This document shows positions 44,070 to 64,000 of a DNA stretch of 64,000 nt, piece after piece. A program made the position numbers and the translations under genes. The number at the start of each line of letters is the position of its first letter. The first letter of the stretch is position 1. The notes under the pieces are model-generated. The model was not told where the DNA came from. It saw only the letters and a program-made list of their open reading frames with translations, and did not search any database. The DNA comes from an uncultured delta proteobacterium (lineage in GTDB: Bacteria; Myxococcota_A; Polyangia; Polyangiales; Polyangiaceae), in assembly GCA_963696385.1 (NCBI GenBank), contig CAVOKF010000008.1, forward strand, positions 822,523 to 886,522, read 5' to 3'.

Positions 44070-44097
44070 GTCTTGGGGCAGCCGGATGGGGAGGGCC

Positions 44098-45699
<1,602 letters not shown>

Positions 45700-45715
45700 C
45701 GTCTCTCCGCCCGGG

Positions 45716-46819: not shown

Positions 46820-47001
46820 GGGCACCTCCCTAGAGGATCGGTGAGCTCGCCGCCGCACCTTCGCGGCAGGTCCTATAATTCCATTATCACGGATTAATGT
46901 CTATAAAAAAGGACGCTGGTGAAAGGTCGGCCGAGCCAGCCGGCGGTTTCCGCGCTGCCGCCCGACGCAAACACGATCCCGGCGAGCCGCGCCCTCGCGC
47001 G

Positions 47002-48139
47002 TCAGGCAGCGGATACCGACCGCAAGCGCTGCCCTGTGCCTGCCTCCTCCTCGGGGGCGTCGGCGCTGGCGTCGCGCGTCCCGCTGCACAACACCCCGAA
47101 CCGCAACAGGCGCGCCCGCACCACATTCCGGCTGATGCCGAGCAGCCGGGCGGTCTGGAGCTGGTTTCCGTTCGAATGCGTCGTTTCTTCGAGCTCGTTC
47201 CAGAGATCGGAGGCTCGTTCGCGGTAGAGCTCGCAGAGCGCCGCGCGCAGCGCCACGCGGGCGTCGGCGCGCCCTCCGATTCGGGGCGGCAGGCCAGGCA
47301 GATGCGCAAGGCTTCGTCGCAAGCGGCGTGACGGGGCGCATCGGGCGCCGCGGCGGCAGCGTGACGTGGGGCAGGTCCTCGGGCTCGATCACGTCTCCTC
47401 GACAAACCAGGAGCGCGTGGTGCATGGCGTTTTCGAGCTCCCGGACGTTGCCCAACCAGGTGTGGCTCAGCAGGCAGCACTCGGCCGCGGGGCTGAGCTG
47501 CGGGATCTCGGCTCGCGCCGGCTCTCCGCTCTTGATCGCGTAGACATCGATGAAATAGCGGGCCAGCGGAAGGATGTCGCCGGGCCGATCCCGCAGGGGG
47601 TCCACCCGGATCCGGGCGACCGCCAATCGGTAGAAGAGATCCTCGCGAAAGTGGCCGGCGGCCACGGCTTCCTCGAGCTGCACGTTGGTGGAGGCAACCA
47701 GTCGGACGTCGACCGGTACCGGATGGCGCGAGCCGAGGCGCACCACCTCGCGCTCTTGCAGGACCCGCAGCAGCTTGACCTGCGCCCCCAACGGAAGATC
47801 GCCGATCTCGTCGAGAAACAACGTGCCGCCGTTCGCGGCCTCGAACCACCCTGCCGTGCCGGTGACCGCGCCCGTAAAAGCGCCTTTTTCGTGGCCGAAC
47901 AGATCGCTCTCGATCAAGGACTGCGAGAAGGCCCCGCAGTTGACCGCCACAAATGGTTGCCTGGCACGGTCGGAGAGCTCGTGGATGTGCCGCGCCACGA
48001 TCTCCTTGCCGGTTCCGGTTTCCCCCGTGATGAGCACCGTGGCGTTGCTGGGGGCCACCTGGCGGATTCGAGACCGCAGCGCGTGGGACTTCGCATCCTC
48101 GAATACCGTGGCGTTGGCCTGTAGCAACACGCGCGCCAC
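47002..48139 (-). CDS. Sigma-54 enhancer-binding protein without sensor domain (SfnR-like), frameshifted before the Fis-type HTH
   Basis: [38 protein letters not shown]. The [23 protein letters not shown] lies in a different frame ending at 47002. Confidence 0.85.
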
Positions 48140-48328
48140 TATCCTCCACGACCGTCGTGTATGCAAGACAACCACGTTCTATGAGAGACATAAGGGCTAC
48201 GCGGCAGGGCGAGACGCTGCTGCTGGAGAGGCAGTTCCAGCTGTCGATGCTTCTCTCTCAGCAGCCGCAGCCGGGGCGCGCCGAGAATCGCCCCGCGATC
48301 TTGGAACGGCGACGGCGCGCCGTTCACT

Positions 48329-48344
48329 TGGTGCGCGCTTTGCA
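48329..48344 (+). promoter_or_regulatory. Sigma-54 (-24/-12) promoter of the TonB receptor operon
   Basis: TGGTGCGCGCTTTGCA, GG-N10-GC, just upstream of GGAGG RBS/ATG 48368 and divergent from the activator gene. Confidence 0.7.
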
Positions 48345-48367
48345 CACGGGGCGCGGTCGGAGGACTG

Positions 48368-51148
48368 ATGGATGCCGACCGCCGTTCGAACGCACGACTC
48401 TCAGCGACTTCGATGAAATCCTTTGCGATGAACCGAGACCGGCTTGTGGAGAGAAGAAACTCGGTCAGGTGGCGTAAAGCGGGGTACGTGCTCGCCAGCA
48501 GTGGTTGGGTGGGCTTGGTCGCTTCTCCAGCCTTCGGCCAGACACCGGCCCCGTCGCCTTCGCTTTCGGCTTCCGCCACGGCTCCTCCCGAGGGTACGAG
48601 CGGCGGCGCGCCACCGGCACCGCCCGCTGCGTCATCGTCAGCCCAGGTGCCCGCGCCATCGTCAGCCCCCGCGCCAGCGCCAGCCCCGGCGCCATCGCCA
48701 GCCAACGCGCCATCGCCAGCCCCGGCGCCGGCGCCAGCGCCGTCGTCAGGCCCCGCGCCATCGCCAACCCCCGCGCCATCGCCGGCCCCGGCGCCGTCCT
48801 CCGCCGCGTTGCCGCAGCCTGCCGGGTCAGCCGCGCAGGCGTCTCAAGCGCCGCCGTCGACTTCCGTTCCGGCAAGCGCTGCAAGCTCGGCGCCCGGCGC
48901 CGGCGCAGGTCAGGGAGCCGCGGCGGGGGCGACCGGCGGGCCCGCAGCGGGTGGCGCCACCGAAGCCGCGGGCGCGCCGGCGAACGCCGTGGAGCTCAAG
49001 GCGGTTGTGGTCACTGCCGAGCGCCGCGAGGAGACCGCGCAGTCGGTACCGGACGCGGTGAGCGTTCTGCAAGGCGACTACATGACCGATAACCAGATCG
49101 GACGATCGGCCAACGAGGTGCTCAACTATGTCCCGAACGCTTCGGCTGTGGCGCAAGGCCACGGACGGCCACGGTGGTGGATTCGCGGTGTCGGGACCGG
49201 GCAGCAGCAGATCGACTTCTCGAACCCGGTCGGCTTTTACCTCGACGAGGTCTACATCGGCAACGCCAGCGCCACCGGCTTTCCACTGTTCGATCTCGAC
49301 CGCGTCGAGGTGCTGCGCGGCCCGCAAGGCACGCTGTGGGGCAAGAACACCACGGGCGGCGCCATCAACGTCGTCTCGCGCAAACCGGAGTTCACCGGCT
49401 TGGACGGGTACGCCCGCTTCGATTACGGGACCTTCAACGATCGCATCTTCGAAGGAGCAGCGGGTGGCACGGTCTGGCAGGATCGCCTCGCAGTGCGTGT
49501 CGCCTTTCACTACGAAACGCGCGGCGCACGGTTCCAGGACCTCTACACCGGCCAGCCCGAGGGTCAGTTTCAGGACGGCGCCCTCCGGCTGCAGCTCCTC
49601 TACAAGATCACGCCCGACCTCGAGCTACTCGGCAACGTCCACTTCCGTCATTACTCCACCCAGGGAGCCACCAGCACGACCTCCAGCAACGCCCCCAATC
49701 GCGCCTACCTCATGGGTTACGTGCCGAGCACGGACGTCAACGTCGTCGACACCAACGCGCCCAACACCGACAACGAGACACAAAACGGCGCATTTCTCAA
49801 CCTCCAGTGGCGAAACCGCGGCTACACGGTAACTGCCATCTCCGGATACGAGGACTGGCGCGACCAGAGCCAGAGCGACTCGGACGACACGCCGATCGAG
49901 ATCAGCCGCGGTTGGACTCAGGGCCTATCGTGGGAGCTCACCGAGGAGCTGCGCATCGCCTCCCCTCAAGAGCAAAGGATCAGCTGGATCGCGGGCCTCT
50001 TCTACTACCACGAGAACATCCTCAGCGACTCGGCAACGGGTAAGCTGCCCGACCAGTCGCTGGAGGGGCCGGGGCCGGCCAACTACGCGCGCACCGACTT
50101 CGAGCAGTGGAACAACAGCGGCGCGGCGTTCGGAAGCGCGAAGGTCAAGATCATCGATCCCCTGAACGTGTCCGGTGGCCTGCGGTTTACGACCGAGACC
50201 CGCCAACTCAATTTCCTGCGGGAGGCCTCGCCGACCGGCGTAGCCACCAACTACACCGACCTCGGGCAGTGGTGGCTGCCGACGTCGGTGACCACACCGC
50301 TGACCAACTGGTTCCAGGCGAACCCCTCCAACACGTGGAACAACGTGAGCGGGGACATCACGCCGCAGGTCCAGATCACCAAGCAAGACCAGGTTTATTT
50401 TCGCTACGCGCACGGCGTAAAATCCGGTGGGTACAACACCTCGGCCACGAGCTTGTCGGCGCTCAACGTCGTTCAGCCGGAACAGCTGGACGACTTCGAG
50501 CTCGGCGCCAAGACCGGTTGGTTCGAAAACCGTCTGACCGCGAATGCGAGCGCGTTCCACTACAACTACCACGACATCCAGGTCAACGTCGTGGGGCCGC
50601 TGCCGCCCACGAACACGGCGGTCTCCTATCTGCAGAACGCGGCCGCCGGTCGCGTCGACGGCGCCGAATTCGAGGTCAACGCCCTGCCGCTCTCCGACTT
50701 GCACGTGGCTGAGAATCTGGGCCTGCTCAACACCCGGTACACCAACTTTCAAGTGGTCAACGGCGGCCCCAACTACTCCGGCAATCAGTTCGTGCGTTCG
50801 CCGCATGTAAGCTCCGTCTTTCTCGCCGACTACCGGGTTTCGCTCGGTTCGCAAGCGGCGCCCAGGCTCTTCATCGCCGGCGATTGGCACTACCAATCGC
50901 GCCAGTTCGACTACGCGACCAACCAGACCGATCCGCTGCTGCAGACGCCGCCGTATTCACTCATCAATGCCCGCATCGGGCTGACCAGCGCGGACGAGAG
51001 GCTGTCGCTGACGTTCTACTCGGACAACCTGACCGATGTCCGCGTTCGTCTGCACAGCCTTCCCGGAGCGACCGGCGCCACAGGCGACGTCGCGATCTGG
51101 GCCGATCCGCGGACCTTCGGGGTCTCGGCGGTGGCTCGCTGGTGGTGA
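48368..51148 (+). CDS. TonB-dependent receptor with long Pro/Ala/Ser N-terminal extension
   Basis: VVVTAERREE TonB-box region, RVEVLRGPQGTLWG.NTTGGAINVVS plug motif, PRTFG...W terminus. Confidence 0.93.
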   Translation: MDADRRSNARLSATSMKSFAMNRDRLVERRNSVRWRKAGYVLASSGWVGLVASPAFGQTPAPSPSLSASATAPPEGTSGGAPPAPPAASSSAQVPAPSSAPAPAPAPAPSPANAPSPAPAPAPAPSSGPAPSPTPAPSPAPAPSSAALPQPAGSAAQASQAPPSTSVPASAASSAPGAGAGQGAAAGATGGPAAGGATEAAGAPANAVELKAVVVTAERREETAQSVPDAVSVLQGDYMTDNQIGRSANEVLNYVPNASAVAQGHGRPRWWIRGVGTGQQQIDFSNPVGFYLDEVYIGNASATGFPLFDLDRVEVLRGPQGTLWGKNTTGGAINVVSRKPEFTGLDGYARFDYGTFNDRIFEGAAGGTVWQDRLAVRVAFHYETRGARFQDLYTGQPEGQFQDGALRLQLLYKITPDLELLGNVHFRHYSTQGATSTTSSNAPNRAYLMGYVPSTDVNVVDTNAPNTDNETQNGAFLNLQWRNRGYTVTAISGYEDWRDQSQSDSDDTPIEISRGWTQGLSWELTEELRIASPQEQRISWIAGLFYYHENILSDSATGKLPDQSLEGPGPANYARTDFEQWNNSGAAFGSAKVKIIDPLNVSGGLRFTTETRQLNFLREASPTGVATNYTDLGQWWLPTSVTTPLTNWFQANPSNTWNNVSGDITPQVQITKQDQVYFRYAHGVKSGGYNTSATSLSALNVVQPEQLDDFELGAKTGWFENRLTANASAFHYNYHDIQVNVVGPLPPTNTAVSYLQNAAAGRVDGAEFEVNALPLSDLHVAENLGLLNTRYTNFQVVNGGPNYSGNQFVRSPHVSSVFLADYRVSLGSQAAPRLFIAGDWHYQSRQFDYATNQTDPLLQTPPYSLINARIGLTSADERLSLTFYSDNLTDVRVRLHSLPGATGATGDVAIWADPRTFGVSAVARWW

Positions 51149-51219
51149 GCGTGGCCAGGAGCTCCTCGGTCACGCCGCGCTGCATTCAACGGTACAACTC
51201 AAAGAAAGCGCTCATTCCG

Positions 51220-51774
51220 ATGAAGACCCAAGTGGCTTATGTCACCGCGTTCCTGCTTCTCGTTGCGGGCCCCGCCGCGGCGGACGACGACGCCGGGACC
51301 AGCGTGGGGGATGACGAGGTCGACGCTGCGGCCGACGTCGTTTCGGTCGACGAGGGCAGCGCCGCCTCCGACGCGAGCGTCACGGACGCCGAGCCGGATG
51401 CCGCCTCGACCGGCGAGGGCAGCGTCGCGTCCGACGCTGGCGTCACAAACGCCGGGCCGGATGCCGCCTCGACCAACGATGGCGAGACGGTCTCCGACGC
51501 GAGCGTCACGGACGCCGAGCCGGATGCCTCGACCAACGATGGCGAGACGGCCTACGACGCGGCAGGCGACGGATCACTCGATGGCGGCACCGGCGAGGCA
51601 AGCGCGCGCGCCACCGACGCTGCGCCCCCGCCCCCCATCCCGTCGTACTACAACGACGCCCCAAGCTGCTCGTTTGGCGTCGCGCCGGGTCCCGCCGTCG
51701 GAGCGCTGGTGGATTCGGCGCTCGTCGCGCTCCTGCTCGTCCGCCGACGACGCAAGCGCGTAGGTGGTCTTTGA
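51220..51774 (+). CDS. Small acidic surface protein with MYXO-CTERM-like tail
   Basis: Signal peptide, Asp/Ala repeats, SCSFG, hydrophobic helix, RRRRKR. Confidence 0.7.
   Translation: MKTQVAYVTAFLLLVAGPAAADDDAGTSVGDDEVDAAADVVSVDEGSAASDASVTDAEPDAASTGEGSVASDAGVTNAGPDAASTNDGETVSDASVTDAEPDASTNDGETAYDAAGDGSLDGGTGEASARATDAAPPPPIPSYYNDAPSCSFGVAPGPAVGALVDSALVALLLVRRRRKRVGGL
51367..51561 (+). repeat. 63-bp in-frame tandem repeat (~3 copies)
   Basis: TCCGACGC units start at 51367, 51430 and 51493, encoding SDASVTDAEPDAAST-type repeats. Confidence 0.85.
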
Positions 51775-51827
51775 GACCTTCGCCAGACTCCGCCGCGAAT
51801 AAGCACCATCAAAACCAGCGAGACCCC

Positions 51828-52895
51828 ATGCTCAAGAACAAACTCGACGCGCTCTGGTACACCCGCTGCGGGGTCCCCACGGCGATTGGCATCGCCGCTC
51901 ACCTGGGTTGGCTGGAGAAGGCCTTCGCCCAGGATGGCATCGCCATCCGGTCGATTCGTGACTCCGACGATCCGAGGGTTCGTGAGTCGCACTTCGACCA
52001 CCATCTGAGGCATTCCGTCCGTCAAGGGGGGAGCAGTCCGGCAATCTGGGCGCGCGCCCAAGGGCGAGACACCCGCGTGATCGGACTTATCTGGACCGAC
52101 GAAGCGCAGCAGATCCTGACGTTACCCTCGACCAAGATCCGCTCGGTCAAGGACCTGAAGGGGCGTCGCCTCGCTCTTCCCAAACGCAACGATGATCGGT
52201 TCCCGCGTCTGGACGTCCGTGGTGCATCCGCCCTCCGAGGCTTCCTTGCGGCCCTCTCTACAGAGGGCTTGACGGAAAGAGATGTGGAGTTCGTCCAGTT
52301 GACACGGAGCGATCCGCAGTCGTTCCGCGCCGAGGATCGCGGGGCTTCCTTCGGGTACAGTTTCGGGGATGAGGCGCTGGCCCTGCTCAATGGGCAAGTG
52401 GACGCGATCTTCGTGAAAGATGCCCGCGGCAAAGCCGTCGAAGCCTTTCTGAATGCCGTCGAGGTCATTGACGTCGGCAGCCATCCGGACCCCGCCGTTC
52501 GGGTAAACTACGGCGTTCCGCGCCCTCTCTCGGTCGACGGCGCGCTTTTGGAGAGCTATCCGGAAGTCGCCGAGCGCCTGCTTTCGGTCGTCATCGAGGC
52601 GGGGGCTTGGGCCAGCCGGAATCCCAGGGAAACGCGATCCATCGTTGCGGAGGAGGTGCGCACGCCCGAGCATTTCGTCGATTTGGCCTATCCCGAGCTG
52701 CACCGAAAGTTGCATACTGATTTGCGGGACGATTGGATTATTCACTTCGAGGCGTACAAGGACTTTCTCTTCAAATGGGGCTTTCTGGCGCAAGATTTCG
52801 ATGTTCGAGCGTGGATCGACCCGGGTCCGCTCTCCGCCTGGAAAGCGCGGCAGGGGACCGGCTCGAAATACCGTGCGGTTGCCGAAGCGGATTAG
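51828..52895 (+). CDS. DszB-like protein 2
   Basis: LWYTRCGVPT, SHFDHH...RQGG, DLKGRRLALP, GVPRPLSVD; no signal peptide. Confidence 0.75.
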   Translation: MLKNKLDALWYTRCGVPTAIGIAAHLGWLEKAFAQDGIAIRSIRDSDDPRVRESHFDHHLRHSVRQGGSSPAIWARAQGRDTRVIGLIWTDEAQQILTLPSTKIRSVKDLKGRRLALPKRNDDRFPRLDVRGASALRGFLAALSTEGLTERDVEFVQLTRSDPQSFRAEDRGASFGYSFGDEALALLNGQVDAIFVKDARGKAVEAFLNAVEVIDVGSHPDPAVRVNYGVPRPLSVDGALLESYPEVAERLLSVVIEAGAWASRNPRETRSIVAEEVRTPEHFVDLAYPELHRKLHTDLRDDWIIHFEAYKDFLFKWGFLAQDFDVRAWIDPGPLSAWKARQGTGSKYRAVAEAD

Positions 52896-53107
52896 CCACG
52901 ATTCCGTGGCGGATATTCTCTCACCTGCCTGATCTCGGCGCCGCGGTCCCCTTCTACGGCTCGTCGCCAGCCCCCAAGGTCGCGGTCGGGTCAAAGTCCC
53001 TCAGGGTCAAAGCCGCCCGCTGCTTTTTCACCTCGCGCAACACGACGAGCGAATCCATCGACCCACGGGGCCGCCCTCACGACCCAGCACCGACGGGGGC
53101 GAGGCGA

Positions 53108-54490
53108 TCAGCCGTTCACAGACACCTCGGAGGGGGTGCCCGTGACTCGCCTCCTCGTCGAGCTGAATTGGTTGTCCGGCCGAACTAACCCCAGGTTCTC
53201 GCGAAAGGTGCGCCCCTCATACCGGGTACGCAGAAGGCCTCTTCGTTGCAGCTCCGGCACGACCTTCTCGGCAAATGTGATGAAACCACCGGGCGCAAGC
53301 GGGGGCAGAGGGGGGACGACGTTGAAGCCGTCCGCACCTCCCTCGACGAACCACTCTTCCATCGTGTCGGCAATCGTCTTGGGCGACCCGTGGACCTGCA
53401 GGTGGCCGCGCGACGTCGCAAATCGATAGACGAGCTGCCGGATGGTCAAGTTCTCGCGTCGTGCCAGCGTAACGAGCTGGCGAAAGCGCCCCTTGCCATT
53501 GTCCGTCTCCGGCAAATCAGGGAGCGGACCGTCGAGATCGTAGCCGGTGAGGTCAGCGCCGCCCAGCATGACCCCTTTGCTGAAATCGATGAGTTCCTGC
53601 AGCTTGGCGAAGCGGTCTCTCGCCTCTTGGTCCGTGTCGCCGACCACGACCGAGAGCCCCGGCGCGATCTTGAGCTGATCGGGATCCCTTCCGTACTTGG
53701 CCATGCGGCCCTTGACGTCGTCGTAGTACGCCTTTGCGTCTTCCAAGGTTTGCGCCGAGCAGTACGTCATCTCGGCGAGCCTCGCTGCGAAGTCACGCCC
53801 CGTGTCCGAATTGCCAGCCTGAACGAAGACCGGATAGCCTTGAATCGGCCGCGCCATGTCGAGCAGCCCATCGGACGAGAAATAGGTGCCGCGGTGTTGG
53901 ATGGGGTGCGCGTCTCGCGGGTTAGAAAATTGCGAGTTGGCCCGGTCCGGGTGATCGAACGCGTGGTCCTCGTACGAGTCCCAAAGCGCCTTCGTCAATT
54001 CGACGAACTCCGACGCCCGTTCGTACCGCTCCGCATGGGTGGGGGCGGAATGCACGCCGAAGTTGGCGGCGGCAGCGTTCTGGAACGACGAGACGATGTT
54101 CCACCCCGCGCGCCCGCCGCTGATGTGGTCGAGCGACGCGAACTGACGGGCGACGTTGTAGGGATGGCTGAAATTGGTATTGACCGTAGCGACGAGTCCG
54201 ATGTGATCGGTATGGGACGCGATGACGGACAGGAGTGTAAGCGGCTCGAATTGGTAGGCGCCCCCACCACCCCGAGCGCGTGCACTCTCGCCGGAGCGGC
54301 CAATGAAGTCGGCCAGAAAGAACGTGTCGAACTTGGCTCGCTCGGCCAGTCGGGCGAGTCGAACCCAAAACCGAACGTCCGGCCGGCCATTGCTTCCCTC
54401 GTTACCGCGATGTCGCCAGGCCTCCGGATGATGGCCGAAGCGCATAAAAAATACGTTGAGGGCGAGCTGTCGTTTCTTCTGGGTGACCAT
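53108..54490 (-). CDS. LLM-class flavin-dependent monooxygenase, NtaA/SnaA/DszA family
   Basis: AERAKFD..FLAD, FEPLTLL, PYNVARQFASLDHISGGRAGWNIVS, QAGNS..GR.FAA, VVPELQRRG...Y.G.TFRENLG; AGGA RBS before ATG 54490. Confidence 0.93.
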   Translation of the reverse strand: MVTQKKRQLALNVFFMRFGHHPEAWRHRGNEGSNGRPDVRFWVRLARLAERAKFDTFFLADFIGRSGESARARGGGGAYQFEPLTLLSVIASHTDHIGLVATVNTNFSHPYNVARQFASLDHISGGRAGWNIVSSFQNAAAANFGVHSAPTHAERYERASEFVELTKALWDSYEDHAFDHPDRANSQFSNPRDAHPIQHRGTYFSSDGLLDMARPIQGYPVFVQAGNSDTGRDFAARLAEMTYCSAQTLEDAKAYYDDVKGRMAKYGRDPDQLKIAPGLSVVVGDTDQEARDRFAKLQELIDFSKGVMLGGADLTGYDLDGPLPDLPETDNGKGRFRQLVTLARRENLTIRQLVYRFATSRGHLQVHGSPKTIADTMEEWFVEGGADGFNVVPPLPPLAPGGFITFAEKVVPELQRRGLLRTRYEGRTFRENLGLVRPDNQFSSTRRRVTGTPSEVSVNG

Positions 54491-54497
54491 GGCGTTC

Positions 54498-54636
54498 CTA
54501 CGACGGGTACAGCGGGCACGACGGGTACAGCGGATGCAGCGGCGGATGCAGCGGGCACGCTGGGTACAGCGGGTGCAGCGGGCACGACGGCCACAGCGGG
54601 TACGACGGCCACAGCGGTAGCGGGTACGACGGGTAT
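54498..54636. repeat. Degenerate 9-bp tandem repeat (~15 units) directly upstream of the monooxygenase
   Basis: Plus-strand units such as ACGACGGGT, ACAGCGGGC, ACAGCGGAT and ACGACGGCC. Confidence 0.85.
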
Positions 54637-54854
54637 CGCGCAGGCATGTCCTGCCAGGTGCGCCCGTCCGCATGACCCAAAGGACGCCGCGGGCCCCAAC
54701 GCGCGCGGCTTCCAGGGTAGTCTCCCCTGGCCGTCATCGCGCGCGACTGTGCTGTCGTTGTCCGTCCAACAAGAACGGCGCGCCTCTCGTGTCCGAGAAG
54801 CTCGCCGTTCCAGGGCTAACGCCGAATGCCGAACGCTCCGTCAATCGGGATAGC

Positions 54855-55544
54855 TCATTCGGCAGCAGGGGCGAAGGCGCGCGGATAAGCCTTGCCTTTC
54901 TCCACGAGCCCGGTGCGCGACCACTGTACTTCCAGGGCGCCCTCCGTGTACTCCTTCGCGCCTCCGATCTGCTCGGCAATCGCCTGAAGGCGTGCGCCCT
55001 CCTCGATCAGCAGGATGAGCTCCGCAGTCTTCAGAATTCCGCGGCCCCAGATGTTGGCGCCTCCGTTCGACTCGAGCAATCCGGGCGGCGGAGCGAGATC
55101 CGGGAATTTATCCAGGCGCTCCCGGATGACGTCGAGTTGGCTACGACGCCGCTCGAGATGGTTCGGAATCTCGCGAGCCAGAAGCTGGCGCTGCGGTGCG
55201 ACATACAAGATGGGAAAAGGCTTTTGCGCGAGCGACCACGCAGCAAGGAAGGGCGTGTGCGCGTGCACCACCGTATCGGCGTCGAGGCGCGTCTCCGTCA
55301 AGATATGGTCGGGCTGCGACGAGAAGTCCGTCACGGTCGCCTTGGGCTCCCGGTCTCTCGACCACGGCGGAGGAAAGCTCACCGCGAGAAGCTTATCGTG
55401 GTCGGGGACCTTGTGAGTGATGTTGAAGCCGATGTGGCTCGCCGTGAGCGAGCCCGTCTCGCGCAAGAAGCCGTACGCAAATATGGCGTCGCGCTTGGCT
55501 TGGTCAATGTAGGCCGTCAATTCGTCGGGTTGCGGTTTTGCCAT
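54855..55544 (-). CDS. Class II aldolase/adducin-fold protein 1 (atypical)
   Basis: VVHAHTP..AAW, LLESNGG...WG, LIEEGA; paralogue of 61908-62630. Confidence 0.75.
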   Translation of the reverse strand: MAKPQPDELTAYIDQAKRDAIFAYGFLRETGSLTASHIGFNITHKVPDHDKLLAVSFPPPWSRDREPKATVTDFSSQPDHILTETRLDADTVVHAHTPFLAAWSLAQKPFPILYVAPQRQLLAREIPNHLERRRSQLDVIRERLDKFPDLAPPPGLLESNGGANIWGRGILKTAELILLIEEGARLQAIAEQIGGAKEYTEGALEVQWSRTGLVEKGKAYPRAFAPAAE

Positions 55545-55600
55545 CGGGCTCTCCTAAAGTGCGCTGGACGACTGTCTAGTATCCGGGACCCTTCGACGCT

Positions 55601-55895: not shown

Positions 55896-57370
55896 CATAA
55901 GTTGGTACTTAGGGATTCGGGATGGCGCTCGCTACCACACAAGTGCGAGTGGCTCGAGGCCCATAGCGAGACGACCGCGCTTTCGATCGCGAGCAGGATG
56001 AGCGCGGCGCGCGTTGGAATCGAGAAACTTGAGCGTTTCGGCGAGGGCACGACGTAGTTGGCGCGGCGAGTCGAGAAGGCCGCGGAGGACATCGTCGAAG
56101 TAATGCTTGCCGGACGCGGCGGCTCGCTGGGTCGAAAGCTCCACCCCCAGCGACGCTTCCGCGAAGTGTGCGAGCGAGCGTTTCAGAAGGGCTGCGAGCA
56201 GGCTCGCCCATATCATCGCTTTCGCGATAGCGGCCTTGCCCGTATCGAAGGCATGAAGGTTGGCGTGGGATTTGAACTCTTTGAACAGGAGTTCCACCTG
56301 CCAGCGGAGGCGATACAAGCCGGCCACGTCGGCGGCGGAGAAGCGCTTGCGAGCGAGGTTGCTGTGCAGGTACACGAACGTCTTCGCGTTGCGCTTGCCG
56401 CGCTTGTAGATCGCCACAATTCGCCCGCGATACACGAATGAATTCGCCTGCCATTCGATGTCGAGATCGACCGTCTGGGCCGGAAGCAGGTCCCAGTTCA
56501 ACTTCTGGCCGAGCAACTTGGGGATGGATTTGCCGGCGCTGTCGAAAGCGGCCCGAATGGTGGGTCGAATGTTTTTGGTTCCGCGGACGATGAAGGCGCC
56601 GCCCGCTTGGTCGACGTCGAAAAAGAATGTTCGCTCCTCGTACCCTCGGTCGGCCAGAAAGAGCCGCTCGCGAAGACTCGCGGCCTCGGGACGGTAGGTT
56701 CGCTCGGTCTCCTTGTCGGCCGTCAGGGCGACGATGCGCACATCGTCTTGGAGCAGACTCATCGTGACGTGCAGTTCCACGGCGGCTGGCGAGATTTTTG
56801 TAAAGCGGCCCGGCCATGTGCCTTTCAAGTCGTCCTTGAGCGCGAACGACGTCCCGTCGTGAATGACAATGTCCCGAAAGGTCGACAGTTTGGGGGACAC
56901 GGCGTGCAGAACCGGCTGGCTCATCTTCTGTACCGTCGCTTCCAGCAGCATCCGAAACATCTCTGGAAAGGACGCTTGCGCGAGCCGGTTGTGAAAGGGC
57001 TTATATCGCAGCGAAAGGCCCGCGAATTTCCGGAACGTCCGCAGAATATCGGCCAACCACTTGGCGTGGCCCGACCCGAGCGTGGACAGCACCGCCACGA
57101 CCATCGCCAGCGGCATCACCTTGCGCACGCGCCGTAGCCAGCCGCTACGTCTCGCGATCGCGGTCACCTGCTCCTCGCCGAGTACTTCCGTAAGCCGTTT
57201 CGCATACACGCCGACTTCGGCGCGTGTACCGTTCGATCCGTGCATCGGGGTCTCCTTTCGCGTGTCCACAACACCGCGTCTAGAGAATCCCCGATGCCTT
57301 TGACTACCCCATTCGTGCACTATGCACGTCAGTGATCGACATCACTCGAGAAATAAAGATCCTACCTATG
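55896..57370 (-). mobile_element. Complete IS4-family insertion sequence (1475 bp) with 10-bp target duplication
   Basis: Imperfect terminal IRs CATAAGTTGGTACTT / CATAGGTAGGATCTT; direct repeat AACGGGTTAT at 55886-55895 and 57371-57380. Confidence 0.92.
55932..57245 (-). CDS. IS4-family DDE transposase
   Basis: IHDGTS, LADRGY, YRLRWQVELLFKEFKS (YREK); AAGGAG RBS before ATG 57245. Confidence 0.93.
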   Translation of the reverse strand: MHGSNGTRAEVGVYAKRLTEVLGEEQVTAIARRSGWLRRVRKVMPLAMVVAVLSTLGSGHAKWLADILRTFRKFAGLSLRYKPFHNRLAQASFPEMFRMLLEATVQKMSQPVLHAVSPKLSTFRDIVIHDGTSFALKDDLKGTWPGRFTKISPAAVELHVTMSLLQDDVRIVALTADKETERTYRPEAASLRERLFLADRGYEERTFFFDVDQAGGAFIVRGTKNIRPTIRAAFDSAGKSIPKLLGQKLNWDLLPAQTVDLDIEWQANSFVYRGRIVAIYKRGKRNAKTFVYLHSNLARKRFSAADVAGLYRLRWQVELLFKEFKSHANLHAFDTGKAAIAKAMIWASLLAALLKRSLAHFAEASLGVELSTQRAAASGKHYFDDVLRGLLDSPRQLRRALAETLKFLDSNARRAHPARDRKRGRLAMGLEPLALVW

Positions 57371-57727
57371 AACGGGTTATATGTGACCGCCGCGGTTTCC
57401 GCGGCTCTTCGTTGATCGATACGCTTTCGACCGGCTACTCGCCGAAGTGCGCGTGCGGTTGCGGTTGCTAATGGATTCCCTCGTGCCTCCAGGCGCGCGA
57501 CCCTCAAACATCCGCCCATTATGTCTTTCAAAGCGAACAGATCAAGCGGAAGCCACCAGCCTCTCCGAAGAGCAAATGGGAGCGCGTGAGTGCCGACAAC
57601 TCCGGTCTCTTGCGACTCGTTCTCGGTCTGCTATAGAGGACTTGTGTCTCATCCGAGGCCATTAAGCGACAGCGGCCCTGCGCCGGCCGACGTGGCTTCG
57701 CGGCTCGATCGGCTCCTATTGAGCCGC

Positions 57728-57904
57728 ATGGGAGGCGTCAACGCGGGTCTTCTGGCCCTGCGCCTATGGTTCGGCGGTGTGTTGGCCCTCTCCCATGGAT
57801 GGACCAAGCTCGAAGCACCTGCCAAGTTTCTTGCCGGCCCGGGCCGGTACTCGCTCGACGCGACCCTCGTTCGCGCGGGCATCGCCAGGAGGGTCCCTTG
57901 GTAA
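57728..57904 (+). pseudogene. DoxX-family remnant with internal deletion
   Basis: N-terminal GLLALRLWFGG...SHGWTKL joined directly to the C-terminal GPGRYSLD motif. Confidence 0.6.
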
Positions 57905-58349
57905 GGGCCGACGGCGCTGCGGCAGCGGCTCGGCGCACGCCGGAGGCGGATCGCTCGGCGGGGCGCGGCGCCTTCCCAACCGTCGCCTCCGTGCGCTGGG
58001 CGATCCTCTTTAGCCTCCTGGCCGCGGCGCTGACCGTGGGTGCGATGGTCGTGATCGACGCGATCTGGGGCCCGCAATAGGTCGGAAAAGACCGGTACGA
58101 CGAACCACGAAAAACGGCCCGCGCAAAAAAGGGTAAGCGCGTCCCTGTTCAGGAGGGGAAACGCGCGGCGCGAATCCTGCCGTCGTGCTGGATCGGCGCA
58201 CTTCACCACTGTCTTCTATTCAGTTGACACGTCTTGTTACAAGGACGACACTGCTGCTCGTGGACCGAGGGCCCTCGCGCGACTGCTGCGGCAGGCCCAT
58301 TTCCCTGAGCGACCTCGGGCCTCGTCGCGATTCCCAACTGGAGGGCACT

Positions 58350-59906
58350 ATGCGCAAAACGTCTGGGTTCGAACTGCTCCCCATCGGGATATTGGCTGCG
58401 GCCGGCATCGCGGCGGGCTTGTTTTTCGTCTCGCCAGCGCGTGCGGACGCCGTCACGGATTGGAACGAGTTTACGGTGGAAGCGACCAAGGGATTCGATG
58501 GATCCGCGGTCAGCGCGGCAGTGACGCTGGACACGAACGTGAGCTCCGAGGTCGAAGCGATCGAGGCGCGAGCGGTGTTCGACGCCGTCAATTCGATCGA
58601 TCACTTCAATAGCGGCAGCTACTACTACAGTGCGACGAACTCGGGGTCGGTCGCCGCTGCGGCGGCCCAGGCCGCGCACGACGCGATTCAGGGCGAATTG
58701 CCGAATCCGGCGACGAATACGGCGGCCGCTGCAGGATGGACCCTGGTCCGGACCTGGGTGGACTCCCAGCTCACCAGCTATCTGACGGCGCTCGGCGTCT
58801 CCAGCTCGGACGGAGGCATCGCGGCCGGCCAGGCGGCGGCCGCAGCGGCCATCGCCGCGCGGATCATCGACGGGGCCGCGCCCACGACCGTGTACGGATC
58901 GCAGCTTACGCCCACCACGAACCCCGGCATCGGGCTGTGGCGTCAGAGCAACGCCGGTGCACCCTTCGTGAATTTCACGACGGGCGCGCCGACTGGTTTC
59001 GACTCGACCGGCACCGTGATTCAAGGCAAGCCCGGCATCGACCTGAACTGGCGGGACGTGTCTCCCTTTGGCCTCACGACGCAGGAGGTGACTCTCCTCT
59101 CGCGCCTGCTCCCTTTGGCGCCCGTAGTGGGCAGCCGGGAGTACGACGCAGAGCTGAGCTATGTGAGCCAGATCGGCAAGGACACTTCGAGCACTCGTAC
59201 GGCCGACGAGACCGCGCAAGCCCTATTTTACAAGCAGGACGTCGAAATCCTCCTGAACCAAGCCGCTCAGATCGCGTCGAGCGCCCGGGGACTGACGATT
59301 GACCAAAACGCGACGCTGTTCGCGTTGCTCGACACGGCCGTGGCGGACGCCCGGATCGGCGCCTGGACTTCGAAATACGAGCAGAAGTTCTGGCGACCGA
59401 TCACATCGACGAACGCCAACAGCGACGGAAGCGTGACCAACGACTACGTCGTCTTTCATCCCTTGGCGGCGACACCCTCGCATCCGTCGAACACATCGGG
59501 ACATAGCGCGACGGCGGCCGCGGCGGCCGAGATTCTCCGGGCCTATTTCGGCGACAAAGTCCACGCGGATGGGAGCCCTGTCACGCTGGGGTCGCTGGCT
59601 TGGCTCGTCGGGACCAACGACGGCACGGGCAACGTCACCACGCGGTCGGTTTCCACGTTTACGCAGATCCAGCTCGAGACCGGCGCAAGCCGGCTCTATC
59701 TCGGCGTGCACTACGGATACGACAACTTGCAGGGGCAGCTTCTCGGTCTGGAGGTCGCGGACGCGATCCTGCGGTCGCGCGATCCCGCGGCGCAAGGCCT
59801 GAGAGTTCCGGACTCTCCGGCCTCCCTGTTCAACCTGGAGCGAACGCTCTTGGCGCGACCGGATCTGTACGGGCTCTATGGGAAGGACACTGGGCCGCGG
59901 CGGTGA
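58350..59906 (+). CDS. Secreted vanadium-dependent haloperoxidase/PAP2-superfamily protein
   Basis: Signal peptide ending ARA-DAVTDWN; KYEQKFWRP, TPSHPSNTSGH and SRLYLGVHY motifs. Confidence 0.85.
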   Translation: MRKTSGFELLPIGILAAAGIAAGLFFVSPARADAVTDWNEFTVEATKGFDGSAVSAAVTLDTNVSSEVEAIEARAVFDAVNSIDHFNSGSYYYSATNSGSVAAAAAQAAHDAIQGELPNPATNTAAAAGWTLVRTWVDSQLTSYLTALGVSSSDGGIAAGQAAAAAAIAARIIDGAAPTTVYGSQLTPTTNPGIGLWRQSNAGAPFVNFTTGAPTGFDSTGTVIQGKPGIDLNWRDVSPFGLTTQEVTLLSRLLPLAPVVGSREYDAELSYVSQIGKDTSSTRTADETAQALFYKQDVEILLNQAAQIASSARGLTIDQNATLFALLDTAVADARIGAWTSKYEQKFWRPITSTNANSDGSVTNDYVVFHPLAATPSHPSNTSGHSATAAAAAEILRAYFGDKVHADGSPVTLGSLAWLVGTNDGTGNVTTRSVSTFTQIQLETGASRLYLGVHYGYDNLQGQLLGLEVADAILRSRDPAAQGLRVPDSPASLFNLERTLLARPDLYGLYGKDTGPRR

Positions 59907-59945
59907 TGGCCAGGCCGCCTCCAGTCAAGCCCGATTCCGACTGCC

Positions 59946-60774
59946 ATGGCTGTCGCTCACCCTCTCACGCAGTCATGCTTCATCGGTCACGGTGCGTGGG
60001 GGGTCCTCACCAAGGCGGGATGGCTGCCTTTTTATGGCGCGTTGGGTATCTCCCCGTCGGTGGCTTGGAAGACCATGCCCTTCGTCGGGGCAGTGGATAT
60101 CACGCTGGGTGCGGCGGTACTGGTGTTTCCTTGCCGAGCGCTCCTCGGATACATGGTTCGGTGGACTTTATTCACAGCGCTCTTGCGGCCATGGGCTGGC
60201 CTGGGGTGGTGGGAGTTTTTCGAGCGCGCCGGCAACTATGGACCCCCCCCTCGCCCTTCTCGTGGCGGCGAGCCAACCAAGCGTTCGTTGGTTCCAGCGG
60301 ATCGAGGCCCGACCCGTGCGGCCCGCGGCGGTTGGCCGGGTGGCATGGGTTCTTCGGGTGTCCATTGCGCTTCTGTTGCTCGGTCACGGGGGGTTCGCAC
60401 GGATTCAGGAAAAGAGAGTCCTCATCGACCACTGGCAGTCGATCGGGGTTCCTGCCGGCCGGGTGTTCTTGCACTGGCTCGGCGGGATCGAAATGGCGGT
60501 GGCCCTCGCGGTCTGCTTCTGGCCGTCGCGATTTCTCCTGTTGGGAATCGGCACATGGAAGATCGCGAGCGAGCTTCTTTACCCGATTTCGGATCGTCTC
60601 AGGGACACGTGGGAGTGGGTCGAGCGCGGCGGAGATTACCTATGTCCGTTGGCGCTCCTCGCCGTCTTGGCTCTGCTGGACCGACACACGGCGAGCGACA
60701 GCGTAACGGCCGGGCGCGCCGTCGCCACGCCGGAAACGGCGCCGACGCCCTACCCATCCGGCCTGCATCGTTAG
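59946..60774 (+). pseudogene. Membrane protein with two tandem DoxX-like halves, frameshifted at a C8 run (60243-60250)
   Basis: Half 1 CFIGHG...EFFERAGNYG and half 2 LLLGHG...EWVERGGDY lie in different frames; 5' end unclear. Confidence 0.6.
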
Positions 60775-60841
60775 CCTGGACACGTGGGAAGGGCGTTCCG
60801 TCGCCCCATTCGTCCGGAGTGCGTCACGAAGGAGAACGACG

Positions 60842-61794
60842 TTGGAAACGCGAAAATTGGTTCGCTGGCCGTGTCGGTGGTCGGGCTGGGGTGCAACAAC
60901 TTCGGCGTGCGACTCGACCCGGCGCGCACGGCGCGAGTGGTCGACGCCGCGATCGATGTCGGAATTACGTTCTTCGACACGGCCGATCGCTACGGCGAGA
61001 CGCGTAGCGAGGAGTATCTCGGGCGGGCCCTCGGCGAGCGCCGCAAATCCGTCGTCGTGGCGACGAAGTTCGGCTCGAAAGTCGATGACTCCCGGCAGGG
61101 CGCAAGGCCCGAATACGTGCGACGTGCGCTGGAAGACAGCTTGCGGCGCCTGGGAACGGATTGGGTCGATCTGTATCAATTGCACCGTCCGGACCCCGGC
61201 GTTCCGATCGCCGAAACGCTGGGAGCGCTGAACGATCTGGTCGCTGCGGGAAAGGTGCGCGAGATTGGGTGTTCGAACTTCACGGTGGAGCAGATCCGAT
61301 CGGCGGAGGGCGGGCGCCCTCCGAGCGCTGCGCGGTTCGTCAGTCTCCAAAACGAGTACAGCTTGCTCCACCGGGAGCCGGAGCGAGCCGTTTTGGCAGA
61401 GTGCGTCGCGCGCGGTATGGCGTTTCTGCCGTATTTCCCACTCGCAAGCGGCCTGCTGACGGGCAAGTACCGGCGTGGAGAGGTCCCGCCCGCCGGAACG
61501 CGTCTGTCGGATCCGGCTGCACGATTCGCGACGAGGTTTCTGAACGAAGCGAGACTCACCCTTTCGGACCGGTTGGCCGCGTTCGCGGCGTCGCGGGGTC
61601 ATACCCTGTTGGAATTGGCGCTTTCCTGGCTGGTCGCACGACCCGGCGTGGCTTCGGTGATTCCCGGCGCCACGACGCCGCAGCAAGTGCAATCGAACGT
61701 CGACGCCGCACGCTGGGAGCTCACCGGCCCCGACCTCGTTGAGGTGGATCGGCTGACGACGTCGCTCGACGCGGCATCGACGCACGCAGCCTGA
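60842..61794 (+). CDS. Aldo/keto reductase; probable start TTG 60842 with a frameshift in the A4 run at 60853-60856
   Basis: GLGCNNFG, FFDTADRYG, VATKFG, DLYQLH, IGCSN, PLASGLL. The GGAGA RBS precedes METRK in the neighbouring frame. Confidence 0.9.
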
Positions 61795-61907
61795 GGTTAC
61801 GACGACCGGCGGTGGCTGTCGTCCGACCTTGCGCATGCGTGTCCTGTATGATAGACGTGGCGACGGGCAAGGGCGCGCGCCGCGCGACCGAAGCGAAAGG
61901 TGAGAAC

Positions 61908-62630
61908 ATGAGTCGAGCAGCGAACAGTCTCGGTCCGAAAGCCGTCGCGTTCGTCAAGAGGGCCACTGAGGAGGCCGAGCTCGCGTTTCGAGTCTTTCGC
62001 GAGACGGGGACGATCACCGCCAATGGGACCGTGGGGTTCGTCGAGCGCATCCCGGGGGAGAGCAAGTTTGTCGCGATTCATGACCCGGGCCCCTTCGAGC
62101 GCGGGAAGGCGCTCGTGCCCCGCGTATTTGGCTTCGACGGCACCGCCTATCTCGGCGAGGCGGGTGGGGGCGGCCAGGGCCGCTACTCGAAAATCCTCGA
62201 GCAGCACCCCGACATCACGACCGTTTCGCACGTCCATTCGCCGTGTTTGGGTGCGTGGGCGCAAACCCAGCGGACCTTGCCCATTCGCTACGTACCTGTG
62301 CAGCGGTATCTTCTCAGCCGCGAGATACCGGTCTACTTGGATCGACGCCAGGCCGAGCAGGACTTCATTCTCGATCGGCTTCAGATCGATCCGCACACTC
62401 CGGCCATTCTGGAGGCGAACGGAGGCGCGACGGTTTGGGGCAAGGGCGGTCTGCGCAAGACCGCCGAGTTCATTCTGATTCTCGAAGAAGGCGCGCGCCT
62501 TCAGCTCCTCGCCGAGAGCCTTGGTGGGTCGCGCGACTACGGTCCCGGGGTCCTGGCGCAGCAGTTCAAGATGAGCGGGTTGACCGAGCAGGCGCGCGCC
62601 TTGGGCTTCTTGCCGCATGCCGGCCATTGA
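61908..62630 (+). CDS. Class II aldolase/adducin-fold protein 2 (atypical)
   Basis: HPDITTVSHVHSP.LGAWAQ, ILEANGG...WG, ILEEGA. Confidence 0.78.
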   Translation: MSRAANSLGPKAVAFVKRATEEAELAFRVFRETGTITANGTVGFVERIPGESKFVAIHDPGPFERGKALVPRVFGFDGTAYLGEAGGGGQGRYSKILEQHPDITTVSHVHSPCLGAWAQTQRTLPIRYVPVQRYLLSREIPVYLDRRQAEQDFILDRLQIDPHTPAILEANGGATVWGKGGLRKTAEFILILEEGARLQLLAESLGGSRDYGPGVLAQQFKMSGLTEQARALGFLPHAGH

Positions 62631-62725
62631 CCGAGAGCGTCGACGCTTTGAGCCTGGGTCCGGATCCGAAGATCGGGCCGTGACCACGAAACGACCTCCA
62701 AGGTTTCTCGATCGGAGAAAACTCC

Positions 62726-63796
62726 ATGACCGCGTTGGACACCCTATGGTTCACCCGCTGCCCCGTTCCCACGGCCACAGGCCTGGCCTACAAGCTTGGC
62801 TGGCTCGATGACGAGTTCAAACCAGACGGGATTCGGGTTCGAACCTTGCAAGATGCAGGCGGCGAGCTCGCCCGGCATCATTACGACCACGAGCTGCCAA
62901 CGCTGATTCGCGAGGGCGGCAATCTTCTTGCTATCCCCGCGAAGGCTCAAGGAGCCCCGTCGCGGCTCGTCGGCCTGACATGGATCGACGAGTGGCAGTC
63001 GATCCTCGTGCGGCCCGGCGAAGCCATAACCTCGCCGGAGCACTTGAAAGGCAAGCGACTCGCGCTACCTGCCTTTCGTGCCTCCGACCTCGCCGAAAAT
63101 CGCCGTGGTCGCAGCATTGCGCGAGGCATGAGCCTCGCGGGCTACAAGGGCGCGCTCGCGTCGGTCGGCCTGACGCTCGACGACGTTCGACTCGTCGAGG
63201 TCGGGCGCGGTGCTTCCGACAATCGGCGCGACGGCCTCGGCGGGATCTGGGAGGGGCTGGATCCGCTCATCAAGGGCGAGGTCGACGCGGTCTACGTAAA
63301 GGGCGCTTCGGCGGCGGATGCCGCACGCCGCCATGGGGCCGTCGTCGGGATCGACCTCGATCGGCTTCCGGAACGCCGCTTTCGCGTGAACAACGGGACG
63401 CCGCGCCCCATCACCGTGCACGAGAGCCTTCTGGCCGACCACTTCGACCTGCTTGTGCGCTTCCTCTACCAGACTCTTCGTGCTGCCGAATGGGCCAAGA
63501 CCAACGTCGAAGGAGTTCACAAGGTTCTGCAAGGTGAGACGCGCGCCAGTTCGCAGGGGGTCGAAGAGGCCTATCGCGGCGGCTTTCATCTTGCGCTTGC
63601 GCCGGACCTATCGAGCGAGCGCGTCGCGCTTTTCCGGCAGCAGAAGGACTTTCAGCTCACCTATGGTTTTCTCGATCGCGACTTTGATTACGATGCATGG
63701 ATCGACGATCGACCCCTCCGGGCGGCGCAGGAGCGACTGCGGGCGCGCGCGGCGTCGAGAGGGCCTGTGCCGGAAAGTCAGGACCTCCGAGTCTGA
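62726..63796 (+). CDS. DszB-like protein 3
   Basis: LWFTRCPVPTA, RHHYDH...IREGGN, LKGKRLALP, NNGTPRPITV; no signal peptide. Confidence 0.78.
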   Translation: MTALDTLWFTRCPVPTATGLAYKLGWLDDEFKPDGIRVRTLQDAGGELARHHYDHELPTLIREGGNLLAIPAKAQGAPSRLVGLTWIDEWQSILVRPGEAITSPEHLKGKRLALPAFRASDLAENRRGRSIARGMSLAGYKGALASVGLTLDDVRLVEVGRGASDNRRDGLGGIWEGLDPLIKGEVDAVYVKGASAADAARRHGAVVGIDLDRLPERRFRVNNGTPRPITVHESLLADHFDLLVRFLYQTLRAAEWAKTNVEGVHKVLQGETRASSQGVEEAYRGGFHLALAPDLSSERVALFRQQKDFQLTYGFLDRDFDYDAWIDDRPLRAAQERLRARAASRGPVPESQDLRV

Positions 63797-64000
63797 GACG
63801 GCCGGTCGACGGGTTCCGCCCTGTCGGCGGCGACGCGCAGCCTCACAATGGAATGTGGCTGCGATCCCGAGTTGGCGCATCGAGCCGATGGCTGGCCTCG
63901 CCAGGAGCGCCGACCCGCCGGCGAGATTCACCGTGTCGTGCAGCTTTCCCACGGCAAAGAGCGACGTTGCGCCGCCGTCCAGGGCCGTCCGAAAGACCTG

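Follow-up and report, generated by a model that had tools for sequence, protein, structure and literature searches.

The solved proteins closest to the one described here are two vanadium haloperoxidases, the chloroperoxidase of Curvularia inaequalis (1vnc, 1idq and 1idu) and the iodoperoxidase of Zobellia galactanivorans (4cit and 4usz). Our protein is encoded on the forward strand at 58350–59906 of a 64,000-nucleotide stretch (the window, from the first letter of which positions are counted) in contig CAVOKF010000008.1 of an uncultured delta proteobacterium of the family Polyangiaceae. Its relatives form a clade from Myxococcota, methanotrophic Gammaproteobacteria and a nitrifier. Evidence of three independent kinds, namely sulfur-free composition, gene neighbourhood and a common operator, leads us to conclude that this clade is probably part of a sulfur-limitation regulon. 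Neither the fold nor the principle of sulfur economy is novel; what appears to be new is that the two meet in a widespread exported clade, with a proposed operator and a candidate regulator.

A profile of 22 homologues, compared with solved structures, matches the Curvularia chloroperoxidase best (E 1.6e-15), then the Zobellia iodoperoxidase (E 1.4e-12), and no phosphatase at E ≤0.01. The chloroperoxidase has the same two-bundle fold, at about 17% identity in a structural alignment, and no link of it to sulfur limitation was found in the literature searched. The iodoperoxidase, which resembles our protein in being a monomer-sized bacterial enzyme of two bundles (18% identity), comes closest in structure (Foldseek E 4.6e-7; template modelling (TM) score 0.66–0.69, normalised to the target). 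Its source, a marine flavobacterium, is unlike ours. The iodoperoxidase is reportedly tied to algal iodine chemistry and not to sulfur genes. Foldseek ranks 1vnc, NapH3 and NapH1 next, and its top 12 matches, every one a haloperoxidase or a haloperoxidase homologue, extend over both halves of the protein. NapH3 (8cxl; Foldseek E 1.7e-5, 15% identity) has the same fold and is a Streptomyces natural-product enzyme, which we take to be cytoplasmic. Because NapH3 is a homologue of haloperoxidases without being one, the fold alone is insufficient for halogenating activity.

Class A acid phosphatases (PhoN, PhoC and the Escherichia blattae enzyme) share the three signature motifs, the histidine nucleophile with its aspartate and the PAP2 match, but are only about 210–235 residues long and match the C-terminal bundle alone (TM score on the query about 0.25; Foldseek E 0.03 or worse). 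A further likeness is to proteins with a similar, near-total loss of cysteine and methionine, namely Sbp/CysP, Ssu, Tau and the sulfur-poor phycobiliproteins of cyanobacteria; our protein is also encoded among sulfur-acquisition genes. Unlike it, none of the sulfur-economised proteins listed in the literature searched has a haloperoxidase or PAP2 fold. Depletion of cysteine and methionine in sulfur-acquisition proteins is an established pattern, as excerpts of PMC7661421 describe it, and the sulfur-free composition therefore fits a role in sulfur limitation. Our literature search found no paper in which the response of bacteria to sulfur starvation is connected with a haloperoxidase or PAP2 protein, its matches concerning algae only; at the level of search listings, the main text of the SrpI paper PMC8049743 contains neither 'haloperoxidase' nor 'PAP2'.

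The translation comprises 518 residues without an internal stop and is followed by a stop codon at 59904–59906. We take the ATG at 58350 as the start because a ribosome-binding site, GGAGG (58340–58344, +), lies 5 nucleotides before it and the N termini of homologues begin at the same position. As the original prediction had claimed, the initiator is the only methionine and there is no cysteine. Across a genome set of 4985 open reading frames (ORFs) from our own ORF caller, non-initiator methionine accounts for 1.56% of residues and cysteine for 1.25%, frequencies at which 517 residues would lack both with a probability of about 4e-7. The 2685 genome ORFs of at least 300 amino acids have a median methionine-plus-cysteine content of 2.65% and a first percentile of 0.61%, so that the haloperoxidase-like protein, at 0%, is depleted relative to the proteome. 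Only one other ORF in this size class is sulfur-free, an arylsulfotransferase gene adjoining one for a luciferase-like monooxygenase.

The protein begins with a basic region and about 20 hydrophobic residues, followed by A-R-A and D. In an alignment of 22 homologues, Ala32 and Asp33 are invariant and the preceding leader is variable, which we read as a Sec-type signal peptide (residues 1–32; 58350–58445, +) with predicted cleavage between ARA and D. The earlier description of the protein as secreted is thus supported, and export presumably proceeds through Sec, leaving a mature protein of 486 residues in two bundles. In distant relatives, FG-GAP, dockerin or Ig-like domains occur as fusion partners; these modules give no hint of a substrate and likewise indicate, from their domain assignments, a life outside the cell. 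Metatranscriptome contigs from three runs of one study (159–259 nucleotides, at least 98% identity) cover 58662–58855 and 59565–59823 of the gene, and a contig of the same study covers 61889–62146 of a class II aldolase gene downstream. They give a weak sign that the haloperoxidase-like gene is transcribed in nature; the contigs carry no growth condition, and the stretches without them are no evidence of silence.

Loss of sulfur is a trait of the clade. A word-index search returned 303 relatives, and the 120 listed are 50–99% identical; among these and the query (121 sequences), 81 lack any sulfur-containing residue beyond the initiator, 106 carry no more than one and 113 no more than two. The listed sources are Polyangiaceae, other Myxococcota, Methylococcaceae (Methylomagnum, Methylovulum and Methylobacter) and Nitrosovibrio, with Methylomagnum ishizawai, Methylovulum psychrotolerans and Nitrosovibrio sp. 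Nv17 as cultured carriers. In a sample of 401 genomes from the same phylum, close homologues occur in three (the source genome included) and distant ones, at 31–36% identity and with 1.2–3.4% methionine plus cysteine, in six. Sulfur content climbs with distance from the query: representatives of 50%-identity clusters contain about 0% at 40% identity or more, a median of 0.18% at 35–40% and a median of 1.37% below 35%, where 10 of 108 are at zero. On a FastTree phylogeny of 109 rows, the query clade is fully supported and its 20 rows comprise 15 sulfur-free, five low and no normal sequences, whereas 59 of the other 89 rows are normal. The superfamily tree also holds a second, mainly sulfur-free clade (seven of eight rows), and its well-supported branches force at least nine changes of the sulfur-free state; sulfur loss therefore arose more than once in the superfamily.

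Sulfur genes recur around the homologues. We clustered the 749 predicted proteins of 72 further homologue loci (designated L) and scanned representatives and remaining neighbours against Pfam. CysK is encoded in nine loci, CysE in seven and luciferase-like monooxygenases in eight; a SerA-like gene lies directly upstream of the homologue in five. In L038, L039, L063 and L022, a SrpI type-2A encapsulin and its long cysteine desulfurase cargo are encoded a few genes away, together with CysE and CysK. Further neighbours encode an arylsulfotransferase, Sbp, a CysA-like ATPase and SulP, a sulfatase directly downstream (+1) in two loci, sulfur-poor TonB receptors, O/P porins and AhpC/1-Cys-peroxiredoxin-like proteins. 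A gene resembling SBP56/methanethiol oxidase occupies the +1 position in five loci from four lineages; its product scores only 24 bits against the methanethiol-oxidase profile, the cut-off of which is 650.

For counting, loci were collapsed to 50 lineages at 90% identity, and the 33 with at least four flanking genes were retained. A gene from a core sulfur list (CysK, CysE, Sbp, SulP, sulfatase, arylsulfotransferase, SsuA-like protein, luciferase-like monooxygenase, SrpI or its desulfurase) lies within four genes of the homologue in 14 of 33 lineages, against a baseline of 226 of 4921 genes (4.6%) in the source genome. Three more lineages (up to 17 of 33) have genes for rhodanese, FGE-sulfatase (formylglycine-generating-enzyme-like)/LysR or CysA/W/LysR within that distance. 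A general lack of linkage between close homologues and sulfur genes, the weak point that the original prediction had itself named, is thus not what we find. A count free of annotation gives 35 of 189 neighbours with at most 1.0% sulfur residues, compared with 3.9% of genes genome-wide. Such neighbours occur in 20 of the 33 lineages, and the enrichment spans the whole 20-kb loci. Pfam scans of the neighbourhoods contained no Pho-type genes (PstS, PhoU or PhoA), and the O/P porins are sulfur-poor and carry the sulfur-regulon motif described below, so that a phosphate-starvation role was rejected.

The promoters of homologues from several lineages, and those of sulfur-poor genes in the window, contain an AT-rich palindrome, GTC-N10-GAC. 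A 16-base-pair weight matrix (consensus GTCTATTATAATAGAC), which we built on 20 intergenic sites of the source genome, finds 29 sites of at least 16 bits in the 6.9-Mb genome, 27 of them not deep within ORFs. The 32 genes beside these sites have a median sulfur content of 1.98%, compared with 2.70% for the rest (Mann–Whitney p 2e-4). Among the 20 of these 32 genes that were scanned for function are those for Sbp, CysK, a 613-residue arylsulfotransferase, three NMT1/SsuA-like binding proteins, the ATPase and permease of an ATP-binding cassette (ABC) transporter, a TonB receptor, two O/P porins, RibBA, carbonic anhydrase, dienelactone hydrolase and an aldolase-family protein; two have no family. 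The other three of the 20 encode paralogous regulators with HTH_3 and cupin domains (C1:399132–399863, C5:535308–536015 and C5:628980–629669), which are putatively autoregulated and are the likely proteins to bind the palindrome. We take SutR to have a cupin domain as well. That Escherichia coli protein (YdcN), an Xre-family regulator of sulfur utilisation, provides a precedent in the excerpts available of PMC4797297. One region of the source genome, contig C1 at 364–410 kb, contains ten palindrome sites and looks like a large sulfur-scavenging island.

Upstream of the haloperoxidase-like gene, a palindrome of 12.0 bits (GTCTTGTTACAAGGAC, 58231–58246) directly follows TTGACA, 104–119 nucleotides before the ATG, and one of 18.7 bits lies at 57626–57641, 724 nucleotides upstream. 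Around the latter there is no convincing gene, the ORFs being without a Pfam match and clustering with same-species loci only. Other sites in the window lie at 46899–46914 (20.0 bits), at 55574–55589 beside a sulfur-free aldolase-family gene (16.0 bits) and at 61841–61856 at the start of a class II aldolase gene (21.2 bits). In 11 of 31 GC-rich homologue loci, representing eight lineages, all of them Myxococcota, a site of at least 13 bits is found in the 390 nucleotides upstream of the gene, a density of 1.0 per kb against 0.11 across the loci.

These results bear on the reading that there is no sulfur response at all, and that cysteine and methionine were purged by oxidant chemistry or reflect a general sulfur-poverty of exported proteins, with coincidental neighbours. 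In its favour are the repeated changes of state and the second sulfur-free clade on the superfamily tree, the low median sulfur content even of distant relatives, the presence of outer-membrane and exported proteins among those with the least sulfur in the genome, and the roughly half of lineages that have no annotated sulfur neighbour. However, binding proteins, a permease, an aldolase-family protein and paralogues of the formaldehyde-activating enzyme Fae are equally depleted yet have no oxidant chemistry, the linkage to sulfur genes far exceeds the baseline, and the palindrome is common to the haloperoxidase-like gene and the sbp, cysK and arylsulfotransferase genes. Moreover, the characterised chloroperoxidase retains five methionines and one cysteine in 249 aligned residues, and our protein keeps the oxidisable residues tryptophan (8), tyrosine (16) and histidine (7). 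We consider this reading highly improbable. Resistance to self-oxidation, which had been put forward as an alternative, may add to the selection; it is not needed, the non-oxidative proteins of the same loci being just as poor in sulfur.

PAP2 (PF01569) is the sole Pfam match above cut-off (36.5 bits, cut-off 27.2), which together with three signature motifs places the protein in the PAP2 superfamily; NCBIfam has no family for it, nor for its DoxX-like partner encoded downstream. An AlphaFold2 model has a mean predicted local distance difference test score (pLDDT) of 71.4 and a predicted TM score of 0.78, and is weak at residues 175–236 and 347–380. As modelled, the protein has the two-bundle vanadium haloperoxidase fold, with a PAP2-like second bundle. 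It is not a class A acid phosphatase of a single bundle and about 230 residues, given its mature length, its two bundles and the absence of phosphatases among the profile matches.

Motif 1 (KYEQKFWRP, residues 342–350; 59373–59399, +) contains K342-x6-R349-P350, all three invariant in the 22 homologues; motif 2 (HPSNTSGH, residues 378–385; 59481–59504, +) reads H378-P-S-N-T-S383-G384-H385; and motif 3 (SRLYLGVHYGYD, residues 447–458; 59688–59723, +) contains S447-R448-x5-H454-x3-D458. The motifs had been predicted to be intact, and they are. K342, R349, G384, H385, R448 and H454 align with K353, R360, G403, H404, R490 and H496 of the Curvularia chloroperoxidase, and the vanadate-site set, which also takes in S383, is invariant in the homologues save for that serine. 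Both proteins have an aromatic residue three positions before the lysine; they differ in that Phe397 of the chloroperoxidase is replaced by His378, which is invariant in the family.

We hypothesize that the enzyme is made when sulfur is scarce and is exported by Sec, and that removal of the signal peptide leaves a mature protein without any sulfur atom. Its substrate, encountered in the periplasm or extracellularly, would be a sulfur-bearing compound, and uptake of the product would fall to the sulfur-poor porins, TonB receptors and SsuA/Sbp-type binding proteins encoded nearby. Vanadate would be held by K342, R349, G384-H385, R448 and H454, and peroxide would drive the direct oxidation of reduced sulfur, turning a thioether or thiol into a sulfoxide or sulfonate. 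Another route would start with a halide, or with the pseudohalide thiocyanate, the oxidised form of which would free sulfonate or sulfate from organic matter. We favour such chemistry because sequence and fold are closer to haloperoxidases; cofactor and substrate are both putative, and vanadate-dependent peroxidative oxidation of reduced sulfur, halide or thiocyanate is possible rather than probable. Taken as a whole, a sulfur-limitation role combined with this chemistry is the best explanation that we can offer, one that we find quite possible though short of probable.

With the same role, the active site could instead serve a hydrolase that is free of vanadium. His454 would attack a sulfate, phosphosulfate or phosphate ester of a sulfur compound, and water would release the covalent sulfo- or phospho-histidine, giving free sulfate for uptake. 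The full motif set of PAP2 phosphatases, H-x3-D included, and the PAP2 match would suit this hydrolase, as would entry 3bb0, by its title an apo-chloroperoxidase with a trapped phosphate intermediate. It would need neither peroxide nor vanadate, for which no source is encoded nearby. Sulfate-ester chemistry is part of the response, since sulfatases are neighbours at +1 and the same regulon includes sulfur-free, histidine-dependent arylsulfotransferases. However, canonical sulfatases and arylsulfotransferases already cover that chemistry in the same loci, and no solved phosphatase is as close in sequence and fold as the haloperoxidases are. We know of no PAP2-fold sulfatase, although we made no dedicated search for one. 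On balance, a hydrolase is unlikely.

A third possibility is a sulfur-sparing defence, in which a peroxidase free of thiols and of haem c replaces cysteine-based peroxiredoxins under sulfur starvation, the peroxide coming from uncoupled flavin monooxygenases or from the neighbours that resemble methanethiol oxidase. According to excerpts of PMC12581299, sulfur starvation induces antioxidant defences alongside scavenging genes. Related loci have the sulfur-poor AhpC/1-Cys-peroxiredoxin-like genes mentioned above, and a sulfur-free Fe/Mn superoxide dismutase (195 residues, no cysteine and no internal methionine) is encoded elsewhere in the genome (C4:323940–324527, L086). The SBP56-like neighbour weakly resembles a peroxide-producing methanethiol oxidase, but at a score far below the cut-off. 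A haloperoxidase would also be a poor detoxifier, as it turns peroxide into the more reactive hypohalous acid, and peroxide from cytoplasmic monooxygenases would be better cleared inside the cell, whereas this enzyme is exported. A defensive role is improbable.

The original prediction had proposed a sulfur-starvation enzyme, perhaps a sulfoxidase standing in for an absent DszC. Its first part is supported, as a regulon role, by the links to sulfur genes, the sulfur-poor neighbours and the shared palindrome. The second is weak: DszC of the Dsz pathway is a cytoplasmic, flavin-dependent sulfoxidase of acyl-CoA-dehydrogenase fold, whereas our protein is predicted to be exported and to have another fold, and DszC/SfnB-like acyl-CoA dehydrogenase genes occur both in related loci and in the source genome (seven matches).

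Several observations weigh against a sulfur-limitation enzyme with peroxidative chemistry. With respect to the chemistry, the active-site loops are poorly modelled (pLDDT about 40 for residues 347–380), and the residue before G-H, equivalent to Ser402 of the chloroperoxidase, is serine, alanine or glycine across the family. Sequence does not settle the chemistry, since the residues that bind vanadate in haloperoxidases also bind phosphate, and serve phosphoryl transfer, in PAP2 phosphatases. The loci encode no source of peroxide or vanadate, save the SBP56/methanethiol-oxidase-like neighbour in four lineages. With respect to the regulon, no sulfur gene is annotated within four genes of the homologue in 16–19 of the 33 lineages; the core list was drawn up after the neighbours had been seen, the lineages are related and the baseline comes from one genome. 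Sulfur-poor genes are no commoner within four genes than further out (35 of 189 against 24 of 162, p 0.22). The assignment rests on a self-derived motif that was first noticed partly in these same promoters, which makes the homologue test only partly independent, and induction by sulfur limitation is inferred. The site adjacent to the promoter in the window is the weak one and the strong one is distant. None of 26 low-GC loci carries the palindrome, as would be expected if another regulator is used there. Finally, the other sulfur-free clades of the superfamily could equally reflect selection against oxidisable residues.

In soil, peat and humic water, sulfur is mostly organic; the enzymes with which bacteria are known to scavenge it target sulfonates and sulfate esters. 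A conserved exported enzyme of another fold, encoded beside genes for cysK, cysE, sbp, sulfatase, arylsulfotransferase and SrpI encapsulin, suggests that sulfur acquisition includes an extracellular step that has so far been missed. Bacterial haloperoxidase-like genes, which are mostly without known function, would thereby gain a testable role in physiology, and a myxobacterial sulfur regulon a candidate HTH_3-cupin regulator and operator. Extending this, the clade might consist of extracellular sulfur-mining haloperoxidases of sulfate-poor peat and humic lakes, which, when sulfur is limiting, use peroxide to oxidise halide, thiocyanate or thioether groups and so free sulfonate or sulfate from organic matter, or else of PAP2-fold sulfatases acting through a sulfo-histidine; we hold this broader proposal to be doubtful. 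If the former is true, the enzymatic halogenation of soil organic matter gains a physiological purpose and bacterial sulfur assimilation a new extracellular step; the latter would be an equally new outcome.

In the window, seven proteins encoded within 41880–63796 have a sulfur content no higher than the 1.3rd percentile. The block upstream of the haloperoxidase-like gene begins with genes for an ABC transporter (two permeases, a double ATPase and an SsuA-like binding protein with 0.26% sulfur residues) and a sigma-54 activator (46901–48175), together occupying 41880–48175 (−); one permease has a single methionine in 355 residues. These are followed by genes for a TonB-dependent receptor (48368–51148, +; 0.43% sulfur), another SsuA-like binding protein (51771–52895, +; 0.53%), a flavin mononucleotide-dependent monooxygenase of the NtaA/DmoA (DszA) family (53108–54673, −; TIGR03860, 512 bits) and a class II aldolase/adducin-family protein of 229 residues with neither methionine nor cysteine (54855–55544, −). 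That Pfam family presumably also holds the methionine-salvage dehydratase MtnB. A DDE transposase gene of a DDE_Tnp_1 insertion sequence (55932–57320, −) separates this block from the haloperoxidase-like gene.

Downstream, an aldo-keto reductase gene (60784–61794, +), on the same strand as the haloperoxidase-like gene and syntenic with locus L001, is followed by genes for a second class II aldolase/adducin-family protein (61812–62630, +), a paralogue of the sulfur-free one that does contain sulfur, and for an SsuA-family-like periplasmic binding protein (62726–63796, +; 0.56% sulfur residues, 1.3rd percentile). Synteny with L001, a 99%-identical locus from a metagenome-assembled genome, begins only downstream of the insertion sequence. 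The upstream genes of L001 differ and encode another luciferase-like monooxygenase, 2-phosphosulfolactate phosphatase and an ABC transporter. On this comparison, the link of the haloperoxidase-like gene to the sulfur block at 41880–55544 is recent.

The gene that directly follows the haloperoxidase-like gene, on the same strand at 59946–60863, encodes a DoxX-like membrane protein and is conserved at +1 in 14 loci (about seven lineages), with products of about 285 residues that contain an internal duplication. The assignment to DoxX comes from language-model features (0.97) and a sub-threshold Pfam match (DoxX_3, E 1e-4). The copy in the window is broken by a 90-base-pair in-frame deletion (after 59975) and a 1-base-pair insertion in a run of C (at about 60243). 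The window is the end of contig C8, and the start of contig C2 (C2:1–4785) holds a copy of window positions 59310–64000 at 99.3% identity in which the DoxX-like gene is intact. The broken copy may thus be a strain variant or an assembly artefact from an uncollapsed overlap. In the C2 copy, the otherwise invariant Pro371 of the haloperoxidase-like protein reads as serine.

GC content at third codon positions is 0.87–0.94 in the ABC-transporter operon (41387–46900) and about 0.75–0.82 elsewhere in the window; by this measure the operon may have been acquired recently. A gene at 35976–38144 (−) encodes a Ser/Thr protein kinase domain fused to an FGE-sulfatase domain. A scan of the window for the sigma-54 consensus gave 54 matches against 56.8 expected, of which only that at 48329–48343, before the TonB receptor gene, is plausible. 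This sigma-54-like promoter, TGGTGCGCGCTTTGCA, lies about 25 nucleotides before the gene (region 48290–48345) and is preceded by an inverted repeat, GAACGGCG...CGCCGTTC, which recurs upstream of the monooxygenase gene (54673) and may be a site bound by the adjacent sigma-54 activator.

A search of 57300–58420 against Rfam gave no match at E ≤1, and an alignment of 13 upstream regions contained no usable common block. In the 5′ leaders of three lineages (L015:9900–10000, L019:9745–9845 and L022:9885–9980), GCTGTCGCGG occurs with GC-rich complementary stretches and may mark a shared structured leader; elsewhere GCTGTCGCGG falls in coding sequence, and the leader in the window lacks it. An apparent fusion protein of 1411 residues in L050 is an artefact of the ORF caller.

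Sulfur-free proteins of other kinds also occur in the homologue loci. A Fae paralogue of 169 residues is encoded in L053 (4284–4793) and in L055, there at +1 of the homologue, and an NqrA of 451 residues in L033 (7931–9286). Both are without sulfur residues and look, from their composition, like sulfur-sparing isoforms of housekeeping proteins. In the low-GC, methanotroph-like loci L052, L062, L069 and L070, the +1 position is occupied by a gene for a family-less, sulfur-free protein of about 200 residues with a weak PEP-CTERM-like tail.

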